Positions 50,779 through 62,731 are shown, counted from the stretch's first letter. The stretch: 64,000 nt of DNA from Burkholderiales bacterium (GCA_035454685.1 DATIGN010000127.1:56269-120268), one strand, 5' to 3'. Program-made: numbers and translations. Notes: a model not told the origin generated them from the letters alone.

Positions 50779-51837
50779 ATGCTTGCTCGAACGATTGCCG
50801 TTGCTTTGCTGCTCGTTTCCACCGCCGCCACCGCCCAGCCGGCGCCAGGACCTCACCGCAGCCTCTACATGTACCAGGGCGCCGACCGCGACCAGCGCAT
50901 CATTGAGGGTGCGAAGAAGGAAAAGCAGATGGTCGTCTATACCTCGCTTAACACCAAGGACTCGGTGCCGATCTCGCAGGCGTTCGAGAAGAAGTACGGC
51001 GTCAAGGTCGAGCTCTGGCGCTCCTCCAGCGAGAAGGTGCTGCAGCGGGCGCTCACCGAGGCGCGCGCCGGTCGCCACGCGGTGGATGCTTTCGAGCTGA
51101 ACGGACCGGAGATGGAGGCGCTCTACCGCGAAGGGCTGCTGGAGGAGTTCTGGAGCCCGTACTTCAAGAATCTCCCGCCGGCGGCGTTCGCCAAGCACAA
51201 GCACTACGTCGCCGACCGCTTCAACTTCTTCACCATCGCCTACAACACGAAGCTGGTGAAACCGGAGGAGGTGCCGAACAGCTACGAAGACCTGCTGCAC
51301 CCGCGCTGGGTGGGCAAGATCGGCATCGAGGCGAGCGACGACGACTGGTTCGCTTCGATCGTAAAGCACATGGGCGAGCAGAAGGGACTTGCTTTCTTCC
51401 GCAAGCTTGCTGAAATGAAGCCGCAGGTGCGCACCGGGCATACGCTTCTCGCCGAACTCGTCGCCGCCGGCGAGATTCCGCTCGTTGCCACGATCTACAA
51501 CCACAACGCCGAGCGGCTGCTCGTCAACGGCGCGCCGATCAAGTGGAAGGCGCTCGACCCGACCTTTGGTCGGCCGAACGCGGTCGCGGTGACCAAGCGT
51601 GCGCCGCGCCCGTATGCGGCAATGCTTTTTGTCGACTTCATGCTCTCGCCAGAGGGCCAGGAGCTTCTCAAGCAGCGCAACCGCGTGCCGGCGAGCACCG
51701 CGGTCGAGACCAACCTCAACAAGTTCCCCTTCCATATGATCGACCCGGTGATCGTGCTGGATGAGCAGGCGAAGTGGGAAAAGATCTGGTCGGAGCTCTT
51801 CCTCAAAGGCCAGGCGATCAAGCGCGAGGCCGACTGA
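50779..51837 (+). CDS. Family-1 (Fe3+/polyamine-type) ABC substrate-binding protein, orphan copy
   Basis: ATG 50779 follows GGAGGAGGA. Signal peptide. Paralog of 60565-61587. Confidence 0.85.
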   Translation: MLARTIAVALLLVSTAATAQPAPGPHRSLYMYQGADRDQRIIEGAKKEKQMVVYTSLNTKDSVPISQAFEKKYGVKVELWRSSSEKVLQRALTEARAGRHAVDAFELNGPEMEALYREGLLEEFWSPYFKNLPPAAFAKHKHYVADRFNFFTIAYNTKLVKPEEVPNSYEDLLHPRWVGKIGIEASDDDWFASIVKHMGEQKGLAFFRKLAEMKPQVRTGHTLLAELVAAGEIPLVATIYNHNAERLLVNGAPIKWKALDPTFGRPNAVAVTKRAPRPYAAMLFVDFMLSPEGQELLKQRNRVPASTAVETNLNKFPFHMIDPVIVLDEQAKWEKIWSELFLKGQAIKREAD

Positions 51838-54293: not shown

Positions 54294-56002
54294 CGTTTCT
54301 GGGTAATCGTGTCGAGGAGCGCCGGCTGGCCGGCCTTGACGCGCGCGATGGCGCGCCTGAGCGCGGCGGCGACATCGCCGGGACGGCCGATAGGACCCTC
54401 GGCGTACCAGCCCATGGACTTCGCCAGCGCGGCGAAATCCGGGGCCGGGTCGTCCATGTCCATGCCGATGTGCGCGCGCTCCACCGGCGTGCCGCGCAGC
54501 TTCGCCATGCGGATCTGGTGCTCCCAGTCGTTGTAATAGGCGCGGTTGTTGTACATCACCACGAGCAGCGGAATGCGGTGCTTTGCCGCCACCCACAGCG
54601 CGCCTGCGTCGAACATGAGGTCGCCGTCGGGCTGAAGGTCGACGACCAGCCGCTTTGCATCGCGGTGCGCGAGCGCGACGCCAAGCGAAATTCCGATCTG
54701 CGTCGCCGTGCCGAGAGACTTTCCGGCATGGCGATACGGCTTGTCGAAGTCCCAGATCTGCCGCGCCCGGTCGTCCAGGGTCCCCGCCGCGAGCACCCAG
54801 TCTTCGGACTTGATCGCGTTCCACACTTCCGTCGCGAGCCGCGGCAAGGTAATCGGGCTCGCGTCCCAGTCCTCCTTCGCTTCCGCCTGCCACTTCGCAT
54901 GCGCTTTTTGGCGCAGCTCGGCCACGGTTCTTAGCCAGGAATCGCGCTTAACGGGTCTTGATGCAAGAAGCTTCGTTAGCGTAGGAATCGCAAGCGTGGT
55001 ATCCGCGAGAATGCGCAGGTCGGCGTGCGCAAGGCGCTGGTAGTCCATCGCCCAGCTCGAAATCTCGAGGTCGCCGAAGCCGATGTCGATCCATTTGCAG
55101 TCCGCCGGAACGAGCGAGGTCACCTCGCGCGTCGTGCTCACGAGCTCGGTCGTGGGGCGCTCCCAGTCCCGCGTATCGAGGCAAAGGATGAGGTCCGCGT
55201 CGCGAAAGACATGCTTCACCATGCTCAGGTTGAGCGGATGCCGGCTCGGGAAGTTGAGGCGGCTGTTGACGTCGTAGACCGGTGCGCCGAGCGTCTCGGC
55301 GAGCTCGACCAGGGCATGGAAGCCAGCGGGCTCGCGGCCGACATACTCGGCGATGATCGCCGGGCGTTTCGCGGCAGCAAGCATCTCGGCCGCTCTTTCC
55401 AGCGCTGCGGGGTCCGGTGCGAGCGGGCTCGGCACTTTGGCGGCGGACGATTTTGGAAGCGCGACCTCATGCTCGAGCGGCTGCTCCTGGAGCCAGGCGT
55501 CGTAGCACATGTAGATCGGGCCGCGCGGCTCGGTCATCATCACCGCATAGGCGCGCGCGAAAGATTCGGGCACGCCGTCGATCACGGTCGGCTGATAGTC
55601 CCACTTGGTGTATGCGCGCACCGCCTCGCCCTGCACCAGCGCGCTGTGGATCCAGTCGATGCGCGGCCGGCGTTTGGTCTCGTCCATAGGCCCCGTGGCG
55701 CCGATGATGAACACCGGCGCGCGGTCGGCGTAGGCGTAGTAGATCGCCATGTTGGCGTGCAGGAGGCCGACCAGGTTATGCAGGATGGCGACCATCGGTC
55801 TTCCGCTCGCCTTGGCGTAGCCGTGAGCGATCTGCACCGCGGTCTCCTCATGCTGGCAGAGCATCATGGCCGGCCGGTTGCCGCCGTAATTCACCATCGA
55901 GTCGTGCAGCCCGCGGTAGGAGGCGCCCGGGTTGAGTGCCGCATAGGGAAAATCGTAGGCATGCAGCATGTCCACGATCACGTCGGAAGCCCAGCGCTTC
56001 AT
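54290..56002 (-). CDS. Thiamine-diphosphate-dependent enzyme (acetolactate-synthase/benzoylformate-decarboxylase superfamily)
   Basis: Start at the internal ATG (MKRWASDVIVDML). HEETAVQIAHGYA Pyr-domain Glu. GDLMFDAGALWVAAKHRIPLLVVMYNN ThDP-binding motif. Confidence 0.85.
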   Translation of the reverse strand: MKRWASDVIVDMLHAYDFPYAALNPGASYRGLHDSMVNYGGNRPAMMLCQHEETAVQIAHGYAKASGRPMVAILHNLVGLLHANMAIYYAYADRAPVFIIGATGPMDETKRRPRIDWIHSALVQGEAVRAYTKWDYQPTVIDGVPESFARAYAVMMTEPRGPIYMCYDAWLQEQPLEHEVALPKSSAAKVPSPLAPDPAALERAAEMLAAAKRPAIIAEYVGREPAGFHALVELAETLGAPVYDVNSRLNFPSRHPLNLSMVKHVFRDADLILCLDTRDWERPTTELVSTTREVTSLVPADCKWIDIGFGDLEISSWAMDYQRLAHADLRILADTTLAIPTLTKLLASRPVKRDSWLRTVAELRQKAHAKWQAEAKEDWDASPITLPRLATEVWNAIKSEDWVLAAGTLDDRARQIWDFDKPYRHAGKSLGTATQIGISLGVALAHRDAKRLVVDLQPDGDLMFDAGALWVAAKHRIPLLVVMYNNRAYYNDWEHQIRMAKLRGTPVERAHIGMDMDDPAPDFAALAKSMGWYAEGPIGRPGDVAAALRRAIARVKAGQPALLDTITQKR

Positions 56003-57117
56003 TCGTAAGCCCACTCCCCGGACGCCTTGAGCGCCACGCACTTCTCCGGATCGATGCGCACGTAGAGGCTCGCGCCGACCGGCGTGCGCAGCGACGGATG
56101 CGCGCGCGACTGCACCGAGCGGCGGCCGATCATTACCTGGAAGTCAACGACCTCGCCGAGGAATACCTTCTGGTCCACGGTGGCCTGGTAGACGTTCTCG
56201 CCGTCGCGGCGGCTCTCGGAAAGCTCCACGTCTTCCGGCCGGATCGAGAGCACCACCTCCTCGCCGCTCTTCAGCGAATCGACACCGCGCGCCTTCAGTT
56301 CGCCGATCTCGGAGCGGATGCGGTAGAAGCCGCCCGCCGGGTCGGCTGCGCTCACGTCACCCTTGATGAAGTTGGTGGTGCCGACGAAGTCTGCGACGAA
56401 CTGGTTGCGCGGGCGCTCGTACACCTCGCGCGGCGAGCCGAGCTGCTCGATGCGCCCCGCGTTCATCACCGCGATCGAGTGCGACAGCGCGAGCGCCTCG
56501 CTCTGGTCGTGCGTGACGTAGACGGTGGTGATGCCGAGCTCGCGCTGCAGCCGCTTGAGCTCGAAGCGCATGCGCTCGCGCAGCTTGGCGTCGAGGTTGG
56601 AAAGCGGCTCGTCGAGGAGCAGGAGCGACGGCTCCATGACAAGGGCCCTCGCGAGCGCCAGGCGCTGCTGCTGCCCGCCGGAGAGCTTGGTCGCCTCGCG
56701 ATCGGCCATTTCCTCCAGCGCCACCACCTTGAGCACGCGGTGCACGCGCTCGTGGATCTGGATTTTCGGCATGCTTTTCCTGGAAACCTGCAACGGAAAG
56801 GCCGCGTTGTCGAACACCGTCATGTGGGGCCAGATGGCATAGGACTGGAACACCATGCCGAGTCCGCGGCGGTTCGGCGGCACGAACACCCGCTGTGTCG
56901 AGGAATAGATGACGCGGCCCCCGACGACGATTTCCCCGGAACGCGGCTTTTCCAGCCCGGCGATCGAGCGCAGCGTAGTGGTCTTGCCGCATCCGCTCGG
57001 GCCGAGCAGCGTGAAGAGCTTGCCCTGCGGCACGTCGAAGCTCACGTCCTGCGCGGCGCGGATTGTCTGGCCGTGCTCGCCGGCGTACTCCGTGCACAGA
57101 GCCGAAACGCTGAGCAA
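55999..57117 (-). CDS. ABC importer ATP-binding protein (PotA/FbpC-like, with a C-terminal regulatory domain)
   Basis: TTG start at 57117, just after the permease stop. GPSGCGKTT, LSGGQQQRLALARAL, LLLLDEPLSNLD. Confidence 0.88.
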   Translation of the reverse strand: MLSVSALCTEYAGEHGQTIRAAQDVSFDVPQGKLFTLLGPSGCGKTTTLRSIAGLEKPRSGEIVVGGRVIYSSTQRVFVPPNRRGLGMVFQSYAIWPHMTVFDNAAFPLQVSRKSMPKIQIHERVHRVLKVVALEEMADREATKLSGGQQQRLALARALVMEPSLLLLDEPLSNLDAKLRERMRFELKRLQRELGITTVYVTHDQSEALALSHSIAVMNAGRIEQLGSPREVYERPRNQFVADFVGTTNFIKGDVSAADPAGGFYRIRSEIGELKARGVDSLKSGEEVVLSIRPEDVELSESRRDGENVYQATVDQKVFLGEVVDFQVMIGRRSVQSRAHPSLRTPVGASLYVRIDPEKCVALKASGEWAYE

Positions 57118-57119
57118 GC

Positions 57120-58862
57120 CTAGTGCTCCTTGATCCCGAACTTGCTGCCGACCCACTGCGCGATCATCACCAGGATGAACAGCGCGATGATGAACATCAC
57201 CCCGAGCGCCGAGAGCTCGACGTACTGGCCGTTCTCCCACAGCTCCCAGATGAGGATCGAGAGCACCTCGTTGCCCGGGCTATAGAGAAGGATCGAGCTC
57301 GAGAGCTCGCGGATCGACACGATCATGATGTAGATCCAGCCGGCGACCAGCCCCGGTTTGAGCAGCGGCAGAATGATGCGCCTGAAGCTCGTCGTCCAGG
57401 AAGCGCCGCTCATGGCCGCCGATTCCTCGAGCTCCTTGTGGATCTGCAGCATCGAGGTCGTGTTGTAGCGCAGCCCGTAGGGCAGGAAGCGCGTCACGTA
57501 GGCGATGACCAGGATCCAGATCGTGCCGTAGACGCCGATCGGCACGTAGAGGTAGAGGATCATGATCGACAGGCCAAGCACGATGCCCGGAAACACCATC
57601 GGCAGCGAGGCGATGTTGTCGAGCAGCCAGCGGCCGGGCAGCCGGGTCTTGACCACGATCCAGCAGATCACCGAGGTCACGAGCATGATGAGCGTGGCTG
57701 AGCCGACAGCGAGCACCAGGCTGTTCCACACCGAGCGCCACAGTCCCGGGTGATCGAGCACGGTGCGGTAGGGCTCGAACGTCATGCGCTGGATCGCTTC
57801 GATGGAGGGCACGGAGTAGAACTTCTGGAACGACGACCACAGCAGGACCGCGAACGGCAGCAGCACGATGAGCAGGAAGTAGACCAGGAACACCGCGACC
57901 GCGAGGTAACGCCACGGGCCGAGGTCGATCTGGCGCGGCCGGAAGCCCTTGCCGGTCATGGTCGCGTACTTGTTGCCCCGGCTCGACAGCACCGACTGAA
58001 AGTACACGCCGATAGTGGTGAGCAGCAGCAGCGTGACCGCGTAGGCGGAAGCGAGGCCGATCTGGCTTGGATAGCGGTGCACCGCCTGGTAGATCGCCGA
58101 GGTGAAGACCTGAATGCCGACCGGAAGCCCGAGCAGCGCCGGCACCTCGAACGATTCGATCGCCCGCACGAAAAGAATGAGCAACGTGGCGAAGATCGCG
58201 GGCCATACCAATGGCAATGTCACCCGGGTGAGCACCTGCCACACGCTCGCGCCGCTCATCACGGCCGACTCTTCGAGCGCCGGATCCATCGCGCGGAACG
58301 CCGCGGTCATCAGCAGGAAAGCCATCGGCGAGTAGTGCAGCGCGTCGACCCAGATCATTCCCCAGAGCGAGTAGACGTTGATGAACACCGCTTCGGTGTC
58401 GAAGACCTTCTGCAGCGCCAGGTTGATGAGGCCGATCTTCGGGCTGCCCAGCAGGATCCACGAGACGGTGAAGAGAATTCCCGGGATCACGAGCGGAATG
58501 AGCGAGAGCGCGAAAAAGAGCGCCTTGAACGGGGTATTGGTGCGCTCGTTCATCCACGCGAGCAGCGTCCCGAGCACGAAAGCGAGCACGGCGGTGCCCG
58601 AGGCAAACTTGACCGAGTTCCAGAACAGCACCCAGGTTTCCGCCGAGCCGTAGGCCTCGCGGTAGTTGCCGAGCGTGAACTCGGCCGCCTTGGCCGCGGT
58701 GTGGGGCGTGAAGAAGCTCTGCCAGAGCAGGAAGCCGAGCGGCACGATGCCGAGGTAAACCGTGACGGCGACACAGACGCCGATGATCAGCCATTTCGGG
58801 TCGAAGGCGAGCCGCGGCGCAGCGGCCGCCGGCGCCCTAGCGAGGGTGGTGGTGCTCGGCAT
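57120..58862 (-). CDS. Fused two-module ABC importer permease (FbpB/ThiP-type)
   Basis: 580 aa, two MalFG-type halves. Confidence 0.85.
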   Translation of the reverse strand: MPSTTTLARAPAAAAPRLAFDPKWLIIGVCVAVTVYLGIVPLGFLLWQSFFTPHTAAKAAEFTLGNYREAYGSAETWVLFWNSVKFASGTAVLAFVLGTLLAWMNERTNTPFKALFFALSLIPLVIPGILFTVSWILLGSPKIGLINLALQKVFDTEAVFINVYSLWGMIWVDALHYSPMAFLLMTAAFRAMDPALEESAVMSGASVWQVLTRVTLPLVWPAIFATLLILFVRAIESFEVPALLGLPVGIQVFTSAIYQAVHRYPSQIGLASAYAVTLLLLTTIGVYFQSVLSSRGNKYATMTGKGFRPRQIDLGPWRYLAVAVFLVYFLLIVLLPFAVLLWSSFQKFYSVPSIEAIQRMTFEPYRTVLDHPGLWRSVWNSLVLAVGSATLIMLVTSVICWIVVKTRLPGRWLLDNIASLPMVFPGIVLGLSIMILYLYVPIGVYGTIWILVIAYVTRFLPYGLRYNTTSMLQIHKELEESAAMSGASWTTSFRRIILPLLKPGLVAGWIYIMIVSIRELSSSILLYSPGNEVLSILIWELWENGQYVELSALGVMFIIALFILVMIAQWVGSKFGIKEH

Positions 58863-60417
58863 GCCGATGCGGCACGCGGGGATCCTGGCTGAAGACCAGG
58901 GACTTGATCGTGACCGGCACGGTATTCGAAGGCACCCGGATGCGGCCGAGATCGATGTAGTCGAAGTCGCGCAGCGCGACGCCGTCGATCACCAGCACTT
59001 CGGAGCGCAGTCTCCAGTCTTCCTTGAGGATCGCGCCGAGCGTATGCGCGACGTCGCCTTCGAGGACGAGGTAGATCGGCTTCTCCCGCTCAATTGTGGC
59101 GCGCAGAGCAAGGGTGATTGCGCGGGCCAACGTCGACAGGCGCTCGAACGAAGGTTCGCCGCGCCACTTGAACGCGAGTGCGACCTCGGTTTCGCCTTCG
59201 GCTATATCGAAAGCTTCGAAATGCGCGCGGATGGCCGCAGCCACGGTCGCGGCGTCGATCGGCCCTTCGAGCCGTACGGGCGGCTGCAGCGCCGGCAGGT
59301 TCTTGCGCGGCAGCAGCGCCCCCGGCTCGGACACATATACCGTGTTGCCGGAAAGCTGAACGCTGTACTCGGAGGCGCCGAACGCCGTCGCGCGGATGCA
59401 CTCTCCGGCGGGAAGCAGTTTCCCCGGCAGGCGGTCGAGGCGCTGCGCGAGCGCCCGGCCCAGTCGCCTGCCCAGGTCGCCGAAATCGCGCTCCTCGCGT
59501 CCGTAGACGTATTCACCGACCCCGCCGGAAAACATGACGCCGTGGACGGCGCGCAGCTCCCTGAGCGGCTCGGTGAGATAGCCGCGCCGCTCGCCCAGTA
59601 TCGCCATGCAGAGCGATTCAGCCATCCATTCGCACAAGAAATCCAGCTCAGCCGGTGCGACCCGGCCGCCGAGCTGTAAATCGAGCCCTGCCTGCCGTGC
59701 CAGCGCGCGCCCTTGGGGATCAAGGCGTGTGATGCGACCCTCGGCGTCCGCGACGAGCAGCCGGCCGCCGATGTGGATCGCGGCCGTCTCGAGGACGCGG
59801 CCGTGCTCGATCAGGGCGAGCTTGGTGGTGCCGCCGCCGATATCGATGTTGAGCACGCGCAGGCCGCGGTCGTGCGATACCTGCGCCGCGCCCGAGCCGT
59901 ACGCCGCAAGCATCGCTTCCATGTGATGCCCGGCGGTCGCGCAAACAAACTCTCCGCCCATCTCGGCGAGCAGCTCGCCGATCGCCTGGGCATTCTCGCG
60001 GCGCAACGCTTCGCCGGTCAGGATCACCGAGCCGGTATCGACCTGGTCGGGATGCAGGCCGGCGGCCGCGTACGCCTCGTCGATGACGCGGCCAACGGCC
60101 TCTTCGTCGATGCGCGTCTCGCTCGCATAAGGCGTGAGCGCTACCGGCGACTGGTAGAGCGTCTCGCGGTTGACGACGAAATAGCGGCTCGACAGGTCCT
60201 CCCCCATGCGTCGCATATGCAGCCGCGAGAAGATCACCTGGGTACCAGCCGAGCCGATGTCGATGCCCACGCTTGTCAGCGAGACGTTGTCTTGCAGCCA
60301 GAGCGCGTCGTGCTCGGACGAAGCATCGTGCTCGTGGTCGGCGTCGTGATCGTGATCATGATCGTGATCCACCCCGTGAACGTGGTCGGCGAGCGTATGG
60401 CGTTTCTCACTCGCCAT
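58837..60417 (-). CDS. EutA-family (ASKHA-fold reactivase-like) ATPase with His/Asp-rich termini
   Basis: SVGIDIGSAGTQ, VILTGEALRRENA, LNIDIGGGTTKLAL and MFSGGVGEY resemble EutA. N-terminal HVHGVDHDHDHDHDADHEHD and C-terminal HRHAEHHH. Confidence 0.72.
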   Translation of the reverse strand: MASEKRHTLADHVHGVDHDHDHDHDADHEHDASSEHDALWLQDNVSLTSVGIDIGSAGTQVIFSRLHMRRMGEDLSSRYFVVNRETLYQSPVALTPYASETRIDEEAVGRVIDEAYAAAGLHPDQVDTGSVILTGEALRRENAQAIGELLAEMGGEFVCATAGHHMEAMLAAYGSGAAQVSHDRGLRVLNIDIGGGTTKLALIEHGRVLETAAIHIGGRLLVADAEGRITRLDPQGRALARQAGLDLQLGGRVAPAELDFLCEWMAESLCMAILGERRGYLTEPLRELRAVHGVMFSGGVGEYVYGREERDFGDLGRRLGRALAQRLDRLPGKLLPAGECIRATAFGASEYSVQLSGNTVYVSEPGALLPRKNLPALQPPVRLEGPIDAATVAAAIRAHFEAFDIAEGETEVALAFKWRGEPSFERLSTLARAITLALRATIEREKPIYLVLEGDVAHTLGAILKEDWRLRSEVLVIDGVALRDFDYIDLGRIRVPSNTVPVTIKSLVFSQDPRVPHRHAEHHHPR

Positions 60418-60568
60418 TGGCGCGTCGGTGGTACTCGAGGCGGTGCACGGTGCTCTTTACGAAGCGCAGCTGGCTGGCGAGGGTAGTAATGCCGAGTTCG
60501 TCCTCCTCGCCCGAAAACGAAGTTAGCAACCGGATCGAGTTCGCGACCGAGGACAGCGCCTTCGTCAC
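60407..60568 (-). CDS. Candidate 53-codon stand-alone IclR-type HTH mini-protein (or gene remnant)
   Basis: The GTG overlaps the SBP stop as GTGA, and the TGA overlaps the eutA-like start (ATGGCGAGTGA). Translation: VTKALSSVANSIRLLTSFSGEEDELGITTLASQLRFVKSTVHRLEYHRRANGE. It is hidden inside spurious track ORF 60407-61072. Confidence 0.45.
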   Translation of the reverse strand: MTKALSSVANSIRLLTSFSGEEDELGITTLASQLRFVKSTVHRLEYHRRANGE

Positions 60569-61587
60569 TTCCGAATGAATAGGCCCTCCCAGAGCCTGTT
60601 CCACTTTTCCTGCTCGTCGAGCACCGTGACCGGATCCACCATGGTGTACGGGAAGCGGTTGAGGTCGGTCCTGACTTTGGTGCTCACCGGCACGCGCCCC
60701 ATAGAGTTGAGCAGCTCCTGACCTTCCGGTGAGAGCACGAAATCGACGAAGAGCAGCGCGGCGTGAGGATGCGGCGCGTTGCGCGCCACCGCTATCCCCT
60801 GCGGCCGGCCGACCACCGGCTCGACTGGCAGCCAGTCGATCGGCGCGCCGCGGCGCTTGAGCGATTCGGCGTTGCTGTTGTAGACGGTAAGGCCGACCGG
60901 GATCTCGCCCGCGGCGATGAGTTCGGCAAGCAGCACATGGCCCTTGCGCACGTCGGGCTTCATCTCCGCGAGGCTGCGGAAGTACGCCATGCCCGCCGCC
61001 TCCCCCCAGGTCTTCACCAGCGTCGCCATCCATTCCGCGTCGGTGGCTTCGATGCCGATGCGCCCTCTCCACTTCGGATCCGTGAATCCAGTATAGCTTT
61101 TCGGGATCTCGTCACGCTTTACCTTTGCGGTGTTGTAGGCCACCACGAAGAAATTCACCCGATCCGGAATCCACTGGCGGTGCGACGGAATCGCGCTTGC
61201 CGGCAGGTCGGCGAGGTGGGGCGAGTGGAAATCGGCGAAGAGTTTCTCGCGCGCCATGATCTCCATCTCCGGGCCATTGGTCTCGACCACGTCGACCGCA
61301 AAGCGCCGCGCGCGCGCCTCGGTCACGGCGCGCTGCACGACCTTCTCGCTGATCGTGCGGAAAATCTCGACCTTCACGCCGGTTTTCCTCTCGAATGCCT
61401 GGCCCAGCGGCCCGGATTCGGTCGGAGCGAGCGAGGTGTAGAGGACGACGCTCCCCTCTTTGCGCGCGTTCTCTAGCAGGCGGCGGTCGCGATCGGCGCC
61501 GCTATAGCGGTAGACGGCTTCACTGGCGAAGCTCGCGCTTCCGATGCACAGCACGAGCCCCGCAATCAATTTCAATGGGCGATTCAT
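60565..61587 (-). CDS. Family-1 ABC substrate-binding protein
   Basis: Signal peptide MNRPLKLIAGLVLCIGSASFA. Paralog of 50779-51837. First gene of the importer operon. Confidence 0.85.
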   Translation of the reverse strand: MNRPLKLIAGLVLCIGSASFASEAVYRYSGADRDRRLLENARKEGSVVLYTSLAPTESGPLGQAFERKTGVKVEIFRTISEKVVQRAVTEARARRFAVDVVETNGPEMEIMAREKLFADFHSPHLADLPASAIPSHRQWIPDRVNFFVVAYNTAKVKRDEIPKSYTGFTDPKWRGRIGIEATDAEWMATLVKTWGEAAGMAYFRSLAEMKPDVRKGHVLLAELIAAGEIPVGLTVYNSNAESLKRRGAPIDWLPVEPVVGRPQGIAVARNAPHPHAALLFVDFVLSPEGQELLNSMGRVPVSTKVRTDLNRFPYTMVDPVTVLDEQEKWNRLWEGLFIRK

Positions 61588-61634
61588 TGACCCTCGTACT
61601 ATTCTATGGTGAAGTGAGCCGAGGAGAACGCGGT

Positions 61635-61644
61635 TCTATATAGA
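61635..61644. promoter_or_regulatory. 10-bp perfect palindrome TCTATATAGA in a divergent intergenic region (candidate operator/-10)
   Basis: Read directly. A second TTCTAT lies 32 bp upstream (61602-61607). Confidence 0.3.
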
Positions 61645-61672
61645 GAAACCTCGGAAACGCCGGTCCAGCCTC

Positions 61673-62731
61673 GTGAGCACCAAGACCACCACGGCCGTCA
61701 CGCATTACCACATCCAGAAGAAACGGCGGGCCGAGTTCATCGAGCAGTGGCGCAAGAACCGGCGCACCGTGATCCGCGGCGAAGATGTCGCGCTGCAGCG
61801 CACTGCGCGAGGTTTGCGGAGCGGCGTCTACATGGGGTGGGACGGCGACTCGCCGACGCGCTGCCTCGACGCTCTGGTACACGAGATCGACCCGGGCACG
61901 GTGGCGACGATCCACCGTCATTCATGGGACGCGCAGCTTTTTATCGTCGAGGGCTCCGGCTGGAGCGAGATCGACGGCCGCCGCTTCGAATGGAAGCCTT
62001 GGGACGCGATCCACATCCCGGCGTGGAGCTGGCACCGACACGGCAACGACGGCTCGAGGCGCGCCCGCTTCATGAGCTATTCGTCCGAGCCGATGCTCTG
62101 GACGCTGGGTCTCTGCGTGCTCGAAGACCGAGGGTACGAGGATGTGCGCGACCTCCCCCCGCCGCCGGCTTCAAGCCCGGGTATTGACGGTGACGATCCA
62201 TATTCCCGCCGAAGACGACGGATTTTTCAGGAAACCAAGAAACGACGTGGCGGCCGCATCCATACGCCCTACGACGAGCAGGATCTGCTCGCCACGCCGC
62301 GCGGCACGCGCACCAAGTTCCTGGTCGACCGCGCCATCGGCAGCGAATCCTCGGGCATCACCCAGGTCATGATCCAGTTCGCGCCAGGCAAGACGCAGTC
62401 GCTGCACCGCCATCCCGGCGAAGCGTGGCTCTACGTTGTCGAAGGTTACGGCCACAGCTTCATGGGCACTGCTCCGGACCGCGGGCAGCACTACCGCTGG
62501 AAAAAAGGCGATCTCATCGTGGTCGACCATTTCCTGTGGCACCAGCACTTCAACGACGATCCCAAGGGGGAGGCTCGACTCGTGCGCGTCCACATGTTCG
62601 ACTCGATCCTGGAAACCATGCGCGCGCTCACCGACCCGTTGGTGCTTTTCGAGGAGGCGGAGGATACGCTCCTCAGCATGCAGGAAATCTCGCAGATCGA
62701 GTGGCCGGACGATCGGCGGCCGGAAGGTTGA
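61673..62731 (+). CDS. Bicupin protein
   Basis: IHRHSWDAQLFIVEGSG...WSWHRHGN and HRHPGEAWLYVVEGYG...FLWHQHFN. GTG start. Confidence 0.75.
   Translation: MSTKTTTAVTHYHIQKKRRAEFIEQWRKNRRTVIRGEDVALQRTARGLRSGVYMGWDGDSPTRCLDALVHEIDPGTVATIHRHSWDAQLFIVEGSGWSEIDGRRFEWKPWDAIHIPAWSWHRHGNDGSRRARFMSYSSEPMLWTLGLCVLEDRGYEDVRDLPPPPASSPGIDGDDPYSRRRRRIFQETKKRRGGRIHTPYDEQDLLATPRGTRTKFLVDRAIGSESSGITQVMIQFAPGKTQSLHRHPGEAWLYVVEGYGHSFMGTAPDRGQHYRWKKGDLIVVDHFLWHQHFNDDPKGEARLVRVHMFDSILETMRALTDPLVLFEEAEDTLLSMQEISQIEWPDDRRPEG

Follow-up and report, generated by a model that had tools for sequence, protein, structure and literature searches.

A short IclR-type reading frame between two operon genes is very probably the in-frame deletion remnant of an ordinary regulator gene

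Between the genes for a solute-binding protein and an EutA-like ATPase, a minus-strand operon of a Burkholderiales genome carries a reading frame of 53 codons whose product resembles the DNA-binding end of IclR regulators. The question raised by this locus is whether such a mini-ORF encodes a small regulator in its own right or is what remains of a larger one. It lies in the stretch of 64,000 nt that was analyzed here as a whole, referred to below as the window. On the minus strand, the gene for an ABC-transporter solute-binding protein (SBP; 340 aa; 60565-61587; Pfam SBP_bac_8/6/1/11) is the upstream operon neighbor of the mini-ORF (60407-60568, in the 53-codon reading). Downstream follow the EutA-like gene (58837-60417), encoding a 526-aa EutA-family ASKHA ATPase (Pfam EutA, 396 bits) with a His/Asp-rich N terminus, a fused double permease gene (57120-58862), and an ABC ATPase gene inside the ORF at 55999-57240. 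A bicupin gene (61673-62731) is divergent from this operon.

The first-pass annotation of the window had described the mini-ORF as coupled by overlapping stop and start codons on both sides, and both overlaps are real. The SBP gene ends in ...CGGAAGTGA, where a GTG (60568-60566) lies over the TGA stop as GTGA. At the other end, the TGA of the mini-ORF (60409-60407) falls within ATGGCGAGTGA (60407-60417, minus strand), in which the ATG of the EutA-like gene is located at 60417. The translation given for the frame between them was likewise correct, the frame reading VTKALSSVANSIRLLTSFSGEEDELGITTLASQLRFVKSTVHRLEYHRRANGE up to its stop codon, and among the ORFs of the window it is indeed listed solely as the tail of a spurious 221-aa ORF that starts with GTG (60407-61072). 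The description of the mini-ORF as hidden, however, does not hold beyond the window, as in sister assemblies it is annotated by the NCBI pipeline as "helix-turn-helix domain-containing protein" and by that of JGI as "DNA-binding IclR family transcriptional regulator." The ORF itself is already known from databases, and the explanation reached here, an IclR gene remnant, is an ordinary one.

A partial IclR-type domain and its full-length counterpart

The IclR-type helix-turn-helix (HTH) pattern noticed by eye is statistically supported. In the profile test that had been proposed for it, the 53-aa product scores 24.1 bits against Pfam HTH_IclR (PF09339; E=3.2e-5), above the gathering score of 22, and gives a weak match to NCBIfam KdgR (E=3e-4). 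The HTH_IclR match is limited to profile positions 1-38 of 52, compared to 1-51 for a full-length orthologue, and Pfam gives no match to IclR_C (PF01614) in the product. A complete winged HTH, consisting of three helices and a beta wing, is not present, with the breakpoint located right after ...STVHRL, inside the recognition helix. In the AlphaFold2 model, built with an alignment, two long helices take the place of a three-helix HTH, which is weak evidence given a mean pLDDT of 70 and a pTM of 0.36.

Querying 40 related genomes with the EutA-like protein identified orthologous loci in the same genus. At eight same-genus loci, tblastn with the 53-aa product detected a homologue 640-750 nt upstream of the EutA-like start. 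These loci contain intact IclR ORFs of 261-272 aa, which end at or overlap the EutA-like start. In addition, a DNA search with window positions 60250-60750 across 71 genomes of the genus revealed at least 24 with approximately 630-680 extra bases between the IclR 5' and EutA-like 5' segments. The 13 cases examined closely each carry an IclR gene that looks intact, and the ORF is complete, at 261-272 aa, in every one whose sequence includes both ends of the gene. Among the 71, the short spacing occurs in the window's own genome (G000) and in G068 alone. A full-length IclR gene, as the first-pass annotation had suggested looking for, is present in relatives at exactly this position.

The nearest full-length case is found in G066, where the SBP stop abuts a 270-aa IclR ORF as in the window, with the same N and C termini. 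The G066 protein reads PEVTKARLSS... ...ARLGYHRRLNGE to its stop codon, and the arrangement of its ORF is MEQAMGGPIHPEVTKARLSSVANSIRLLNSFSGDEDELGITLLASRLRLAKSTVHRL-ASTLTS...AVSARL-GYHRRLNGE. It contains HTH_IclR (residues 20-70) and IclR_C (residues 91-258; E=3.6e-49) and matches the solved structures of KdgR (1ysp, E=2e-33) and TM0065 (1mkm, E=2e-28), as well as PcaR. The 53-aa product is 80% identical to residues 1-60 of this protein.

The gene content between the SBP and EutA-like genes varies in a second respect. A NicO-type nickel/cobalt permease gene is located between the SBP and IclR genes in G012 and several other genomes, but not in G066, G068, G004, or the window. Because all four lack it, the absence of the NicO gene is older than, and separate from, the loss within the IclR gene. 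A single large deletion across the whole interval between the SBP and EutA-like genes, as measured against G012, is ruled out, since the NicO-less layout occurs with a full-length IclR gene in G066. Within that layout, and judged against G066, the window lineage's own change is the internal IclR deletion only.

The deletion and its distribution

DNA alignment to G012 and G066 places the deletion junction at 60434-60439 (minus strand), between codons L44 and E45 of the 53-aa reading. The deletion comprises 612 nt (204 codons) and is in frame, so that ...STVHRL now runs straight into the native C-terminal tail, (G)YHRR.NGE. G066 continues from ...STVHRL with ASTLTS...AVSARL before reaching GYHRRLNGE and its stop; the window reads ...STVHRL-EYHRRANGE and stops, so residues 58-261 of the G066 IclR are absent. 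The recognition helix thereby loses its second half, and neither the wing nor any of the effector/oligomerization domain remains. Both breakpoints carry the short, imperfect microhomology CGnCTnG. A further in-frame deletion of 3 nt at 60554-60559 (minus strand), seen in an alignment of six alleles, eliminates an Arg codon (KARLSS to KA-LSS). Among the sequences compared, this second deletion is unique to the window: G068, seven aligned full-length orthologues, and the five remaining alleles all retain the Arg.

Taken together, we consider the mini-ORF to be the in-frame deletion stump of an ordinary IclR regulator gene (270 residues in G066), with a probability of about 0.88. The ancestor would have carried an IclR gene of approximately 270 aa (HTH_IclR plus IclR_C) between the SBP and EutA-like genes, with its stop overlapping the EutA-like start. 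A 612-nt deletion between the CGnCTnG microhomologies would then have fused its first 57 codons in frame to its last 9, yielding a product that would no longer act as a regulator and whose amino acid sequence would be free to drift. One of the two readings offered by the first-pass annotation, a decayed IclR stump displaced by the EutA-like gene, is borne out in its first half by the full-length genes of relatives. Its second half fails, as the loss is an internal in-frame deletion; displacement is ruled out because relatives that retain the regulator gene have the EutA-like gene in the same position, with its start overlapped by the upstream stop in the same way. The overlap ATGGCGAGTGA is the native one of the IclR and EutA-like genes, and this arrangement recurs in G066 (ATGGCGAGTAG), G012 (ATGGCGGGTAG), and G068 (ATGACGACTAA).

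The junction is not restricted to the window. A protein search returned five further public alleles with the HRL-E(Y/H)HRR junction (P0002-P0006, 76-96% identical) from JGI, ENA, and NCBI assemblies, one of which, P0004, occurs on 23 contigs of numerous JGI samples, each time flanked by the SBP gene and the EutA-like gene. Since five more alleles share it, one of them on 23 contigs, the junction is not an assembly artefact. It is also older than a species-level cluster, because the more distant allele L060 carries it at a pS of ~0.32 to the window in the SBP gene. Nevertheless, the small form occurs in a single shallow lineage only; elsewhere in the genus the gene is full-length, except in G068, which has a different stump. 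When metagenome contigs were scanned with DNA patterns for additional deletion alleles, the junction pattern gave no match and the IclR 5' pattern one unrelated chance match. Two N-terminal IclR fragments fused to unrelated sequence, P0009 and P0010, were not counted as further losses, as they may be chimeric; they lie on contigs of 642 and 930 nt, and the name of the 642-nt contig gives a coverage of 0.5.

The comparison of alleles also bears on where the ORF begins. The GTG at 60568 requires a TGA stop in the SBP gene; in the full-length G066 and in L060 this stop is TAA, the overlapping codon is GTA, and there is no start codon. A native start at 60604 is therefore more likely. Here, 12 codons upstream of the 60568 GTG, an in-frame GTG is preceded by AGGA three bases 5' of it. 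The equivalent codon is ATG in G066, L060, and L062 and GTG in the window, L050, L061, L063, and G068. Started at this position, the mini-ORF would probably span 60407-60604 (minus strand) and comprise 65 codons rather than 53, namely VEQALGGPIHSE followed by the 53-codon reading, and would share 40 nt with the 3' end of the SBP gene. A 66-aa form of the product is annotated by ENA and JGI (P0005, P0006).

G068 carries a different in-frame deletion, of approximately 672 nt, at other breakpoints. Its stump reads ...VTKARLSSVANSIRL-IDTANAVSARLGYAPRNDD up to the stop codon (junction after ...SIRL), with no HTH left, and retains a C-terminal stretch that is missing from the window. Because G068 lost the HTH but kept a stretch that the window lacks, neither allele derives from the other. 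The G068 stump, too, still overlaps the EutA-like start, as ATGnnnnnTAA. In a tree built from the SBP 3' end, the branching order among G066, L060, G068, and the window group is not resolved (supports of 0.42-0.84), so either the window deletion or that in G068 may be the older.

Selection on the stump and competing readings

Selection was assessed by Nei-Gojobori (NG86) pN/pS among alleles, with the stump taken as the part that does not overlap its neighbors. The ratio ranges from 0.5 to 2.2 for the stump, compared to 0.00-0.11 for the SBP gene and 0.05-0.17 for the EutA-like gene in comparisons of at least 828 nt. For the same HTH segment in the 13 full-length orthologues, it equals 0.14. 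Against L060, the EutA-like gene gives 0.29-0.41, a comparison limited to its first 129 nt, which encode the His/Asp-rich N terminus. Segregating changes among five close alleles amount to 10N:2S in the stump versus 11N:34S in the flanks (Fisher p=3.3e-4). Measured against the more distant L060, the pN/pS of the stump is 0.5-0.6 (12.5 N versus 8.5 S changes), which is indistinguishable from neutrality and leaves room for weak residual constraint.

The replacements extend to the DNA-binding residues. LAKSTVHRL is invariant across the 13 full-length orthologues, which span a pS of ~0.46, whereas this stretch is altered in the deletion alleles, by R>Q, L>F/P, A>V, S>G, H>N, and R>S. By these measures, the stump protein is evolving without detectable purifying selection, DNA-binding residues included. 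As the leftover of an IclR gene whose protein sequence drifts freely, the mini-ORF is to be read as a gene remnant and not as a new mini-regulator.

This weighs heavily on the other reading of the first-pass annotation, in which the stump is a functional HTH-only micro-protein, acting as a minimal DNA binder at the divergent region or as an anti-regulator that poisons another IclR-family protein. We regard it as improbable, although several observations would fit it: the product passes the Pfam HTH_IclR gathering score, the frame is open in six alleles with a pS of up to ~0.3, the pN/pS measured with the most distant allele lies at 0.5-0.6 and not 1, and a palindromic box in the divergent region remains conserved. 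The genome also encodes two paralogous IclR proteins with 36% identity, the best matches in a search of the window's genome that found no other orthologue of the lost IclR. However, segregating sites are mostly nonsynonymous in the stump (10N:2S) and mostly synonymous in its flanks (11N:34S), and positions that never vary among 13 full-length orthologues have changed, with L>P, S>G, and H>N falling within the recognition-helix segment. With 38 of the 52 HTH profile positions left, the product has only half of a recognition helix and neither a wing nor the dimer/tetramer-forming domain, and the AlphaFold2 model described above has no HTH fold. In addition, both the operon and the conserved box are retained in G068, whose stump lacks any HTH, and no such small gene occurs in the rest of the genus.

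Two further explanations would make the short frame a matter of assembly or of decoding, and both are far less probable still. A collapsed or chimeric contig could hide a full-length gene, given that G000 is a metagenome-assembled genome of 211 contigs with an estimated contamination of 5.75% and that, in the closest GTDB species (G013), a contig break falls within the EutA-like 5' end. Such an assembly or binning artefact is hardly credible against an identical junction in at least five other alleles from JGI, ENA, and NCBI, one of them on 23 contigs of different samples, and the breakpoint microhomology of ~7 nt, imperfect as it is, lies far below assembler k-mer sizes. Just as little likelihood attaches to a programmed +1/-1 frameshift that would join the HTH to the EutA-like protein, or to a split HTH-EutA fusion gene. 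The HTH and EutA-like frames are one base apart in an 11-nt overlap, and open frames of 677-790 aa run through the EutA-like gene in some relatives, but the latter are the usual stop-poor alternative frames at high GC. Moreover, the IclR and EutA-like ORFs of relatives are complete and distinct from each other, no relative shows a fusion, and ATGGCGAGTGA is without a visible slippery motif.

As a deletion stump, the mini-ORF shares the main traits of bacterial deletion pseudogenes: a single deletion with microhomology, followed by relaxed dN/dS, in one shallow lineage whose sisters keep the gene. It differs from the usual ones in that the deletion is in frame and retains the native start and stop, which is why gene callers label it a small HTH protein instead of a pseudogene. 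The locus thereby calls for caution, as a short ORF that exceeds a Pfam HTH threshold, is neatly overlapped on both sides, and is annotated by NCBI and JGI would here be an unconstrained deletion remnant.

Translation through the stump and control of the operon

The frame of the stump is better preserved than its peptide. In 15 of the 15 loci inspected, a stop/start overlap or a gap of at most 5 nt precedes the EutA-like gene, and a pattern scan of the 45 nt upstream of the EutA-like ATG found no Shine-Dalgarno-like motif (GGAGG/AGGAG/GGAG/GAGG/AGGA) in any of 15 loci. The three independent indels of 612, ~672, and 3 nt are all multiples of 3, for which p is ~0.04 under random lengths at best and post hoc. 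All six alleles that share the window's junction have an open frame, but five of them came from a protein database, which returns open frames only.

The stump is probably still translated within the polycistronic mRNA. Since all three indels are in frame and the EutA-like gene is without a Shine-Dalgarno motif, the open frame may persist through translational coupling. We tentatively suggest, at about even odds or slightly less, that selection keeps the frame open as a coupling ORF that carries ribosomes from the SBP gene to the EutA-like start. Ribosomes terminating on the stump would re-initiate at the EutA-like ATG, 8 nt upstream of the stump stop, and translation of the ORF would matter while its peptide would not. 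If true, coupling would explain the in-frame losses in the window and G068, the 3-nt deletion, the kept native overlap, and the drift of the peptide; losses of the regulator could then recur, tolerated or favored, only where translation through the gap is preserved. The in-frame indels offer a small natural test case of whether translational coupling can constrain gene decay inside operons.

A similar dependence is known from comEB-comEC of Bacillus subtilis, where ComEB is dispensable but translation of comEB is required for proper synthesis of ComEC (De Santis, Hahn and Dubnau, bioRxiv 10.1101/2020.12.30.424838). In both cases, the downstream gene has a poor or absent ribosome-binding site, and its start is overlapped by the ORF before it. 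The need for translation but not for the product there is paralleled here by a stump whose frame and stop/start overlap have been kept and whose peptide drifts. In contrast to the stump, which would be the ORF of a dead gene and whose coupling is deduced from sequence, ComEB is an intact enzyme and its coupling was shown experimentally.

The loss of the regulator itself is expected to have consequences for the operon. The first 57 codons of the stump are orthologous to the typical N terminus of the IclR family, which includes KdgR, TM0065 (1mkm), PcaR, AllR, and E. coli IclR. Unlike working members of this family, the window copy is without the end of the recognition helix, the wing, the IclR_C domain for effector binding and dimer/tetramer formation, and purifying selection. 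As is usual for the family, the IclR gene of this locus lies inside or beside the operon that it presumably controls. We infer that the operon (SBP, EutA-like protein, permease, and ATPase), and perhaps the divergent bicupin/AAA+ unit as well, has lost local IclR control. Because this local regulator was lost in this uncultured Burkholderiales lineage and independently in the sister genome G068, the unexplained, metal-associated operon is probably controlled otherwise than in relatives. Loss-of-function mutations of iclR reportedly arose in the long-term evolution experiment with E. coli. As in that case, an IclR-type local regulator was lost, here twice (in the window lineage and in G068), which would deregulate the neighboring operon. 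In the present case, the loss need not have been adaptive, nor the IclR protein a repressor.

In the divergent control region, a 10-locus alignment revealed two conserved boxes (61600-61649), TATTCTATGGTGAAG (61600-61614) and GGTTCTATATAGAGAAAC (61632-61649), the latter containing the palindrome TCTATATAGA. Rfam and promoter/terminator scans of 59900-61900 returned nothing relevant. The boxes are a plausible candidate operator of the lost IclR. Both are identical in the window, L050, L063, G066, which has the full-length IclR, and G068, which carries the second deletion. Such perfect conservation of a candidate operator in two lineages without the regulator is unexpected if it was bound by this IclR alone. 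Because one of these two lineages has a stump without an HTH, the palindrome cannot be read as the target of a mini-protein. More distant relatives carry GTTCCAcATAcGGAAAC, in which the palindrome is changed on both arms.

NicO-family permease genes and a possible metal link

In the same-genus genome G012, a gene for a 251-aa NicO-family (PF03824) nickel/cobalt permease lies between the ABC-transporter solute-binding protein (SBP) and IclR genes (L022, 7692-8447), and a NicO-family permease gene occupies this position in L023 (G010) and L025 (G017) as well. In the relatives having this gene, the SBP stop and the permease ATG overlap as ATGA. The gene is absent from the window at the corresponding site (60565-60568). 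In addition, the EutA-like protein (58837-60417, minus strand) is His/Asp-rich at both its N- and C-termini. Because of these termini and the permease gene in relatives, the sequences hint that the business of the operon is metal (Ni/Co), not ethanolamine.

In the window, an SBP paralogue (57% identity) lies approximately 9 kb from the SBP gene, at 50854-51807 on the plus strand. G001 carries a second EutA-like copy, 41 to 48% identical and interrupted by stop codons (G001:C167:26854-28260).

Conserved signals around the operon

When window positions 61600-61649 were compared to the aligned regions of L035, L036, and L022-L026, the second conserved box (61632-61649) was found to read GTTCCAcATAcGGAAAC in distant relatives and GTTCTATATAGAGAAAC in the window sub-clade, with both arms altered and the palindrome retained. 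The box is unchanged in lineages where the IclR gene has been lost.

At the EutA-like start, surveyed in the window (60418-60462) and 14 orthologous loci, none of the 15 loci has a Shine-Dalgarno-like motif within 45 nt of the ATG, and the start always lies at most a few bases from the upstream stop.

Contig ends and short contigs

In G013, the closest GTDB species (EutA-like identity to the window, 97%), the contig ends at EutA-like codon 24, adjoining the site of the IclR stump (G013:C269:1-1509, L003). This break may stem from heterogeneity among strains, some with the full-length allele and others with the deleted one, or from the His/Asp codon repeats. Two ENA contigs, L065 (642 nt; coverage of 0.5 stated in its name) and L066 (930 nt), carry the IclR N-terminus (through ...ELGITT) fused to unrelated sequence, representing either additional disruptions of this IclR gene or chimeric assemblies.
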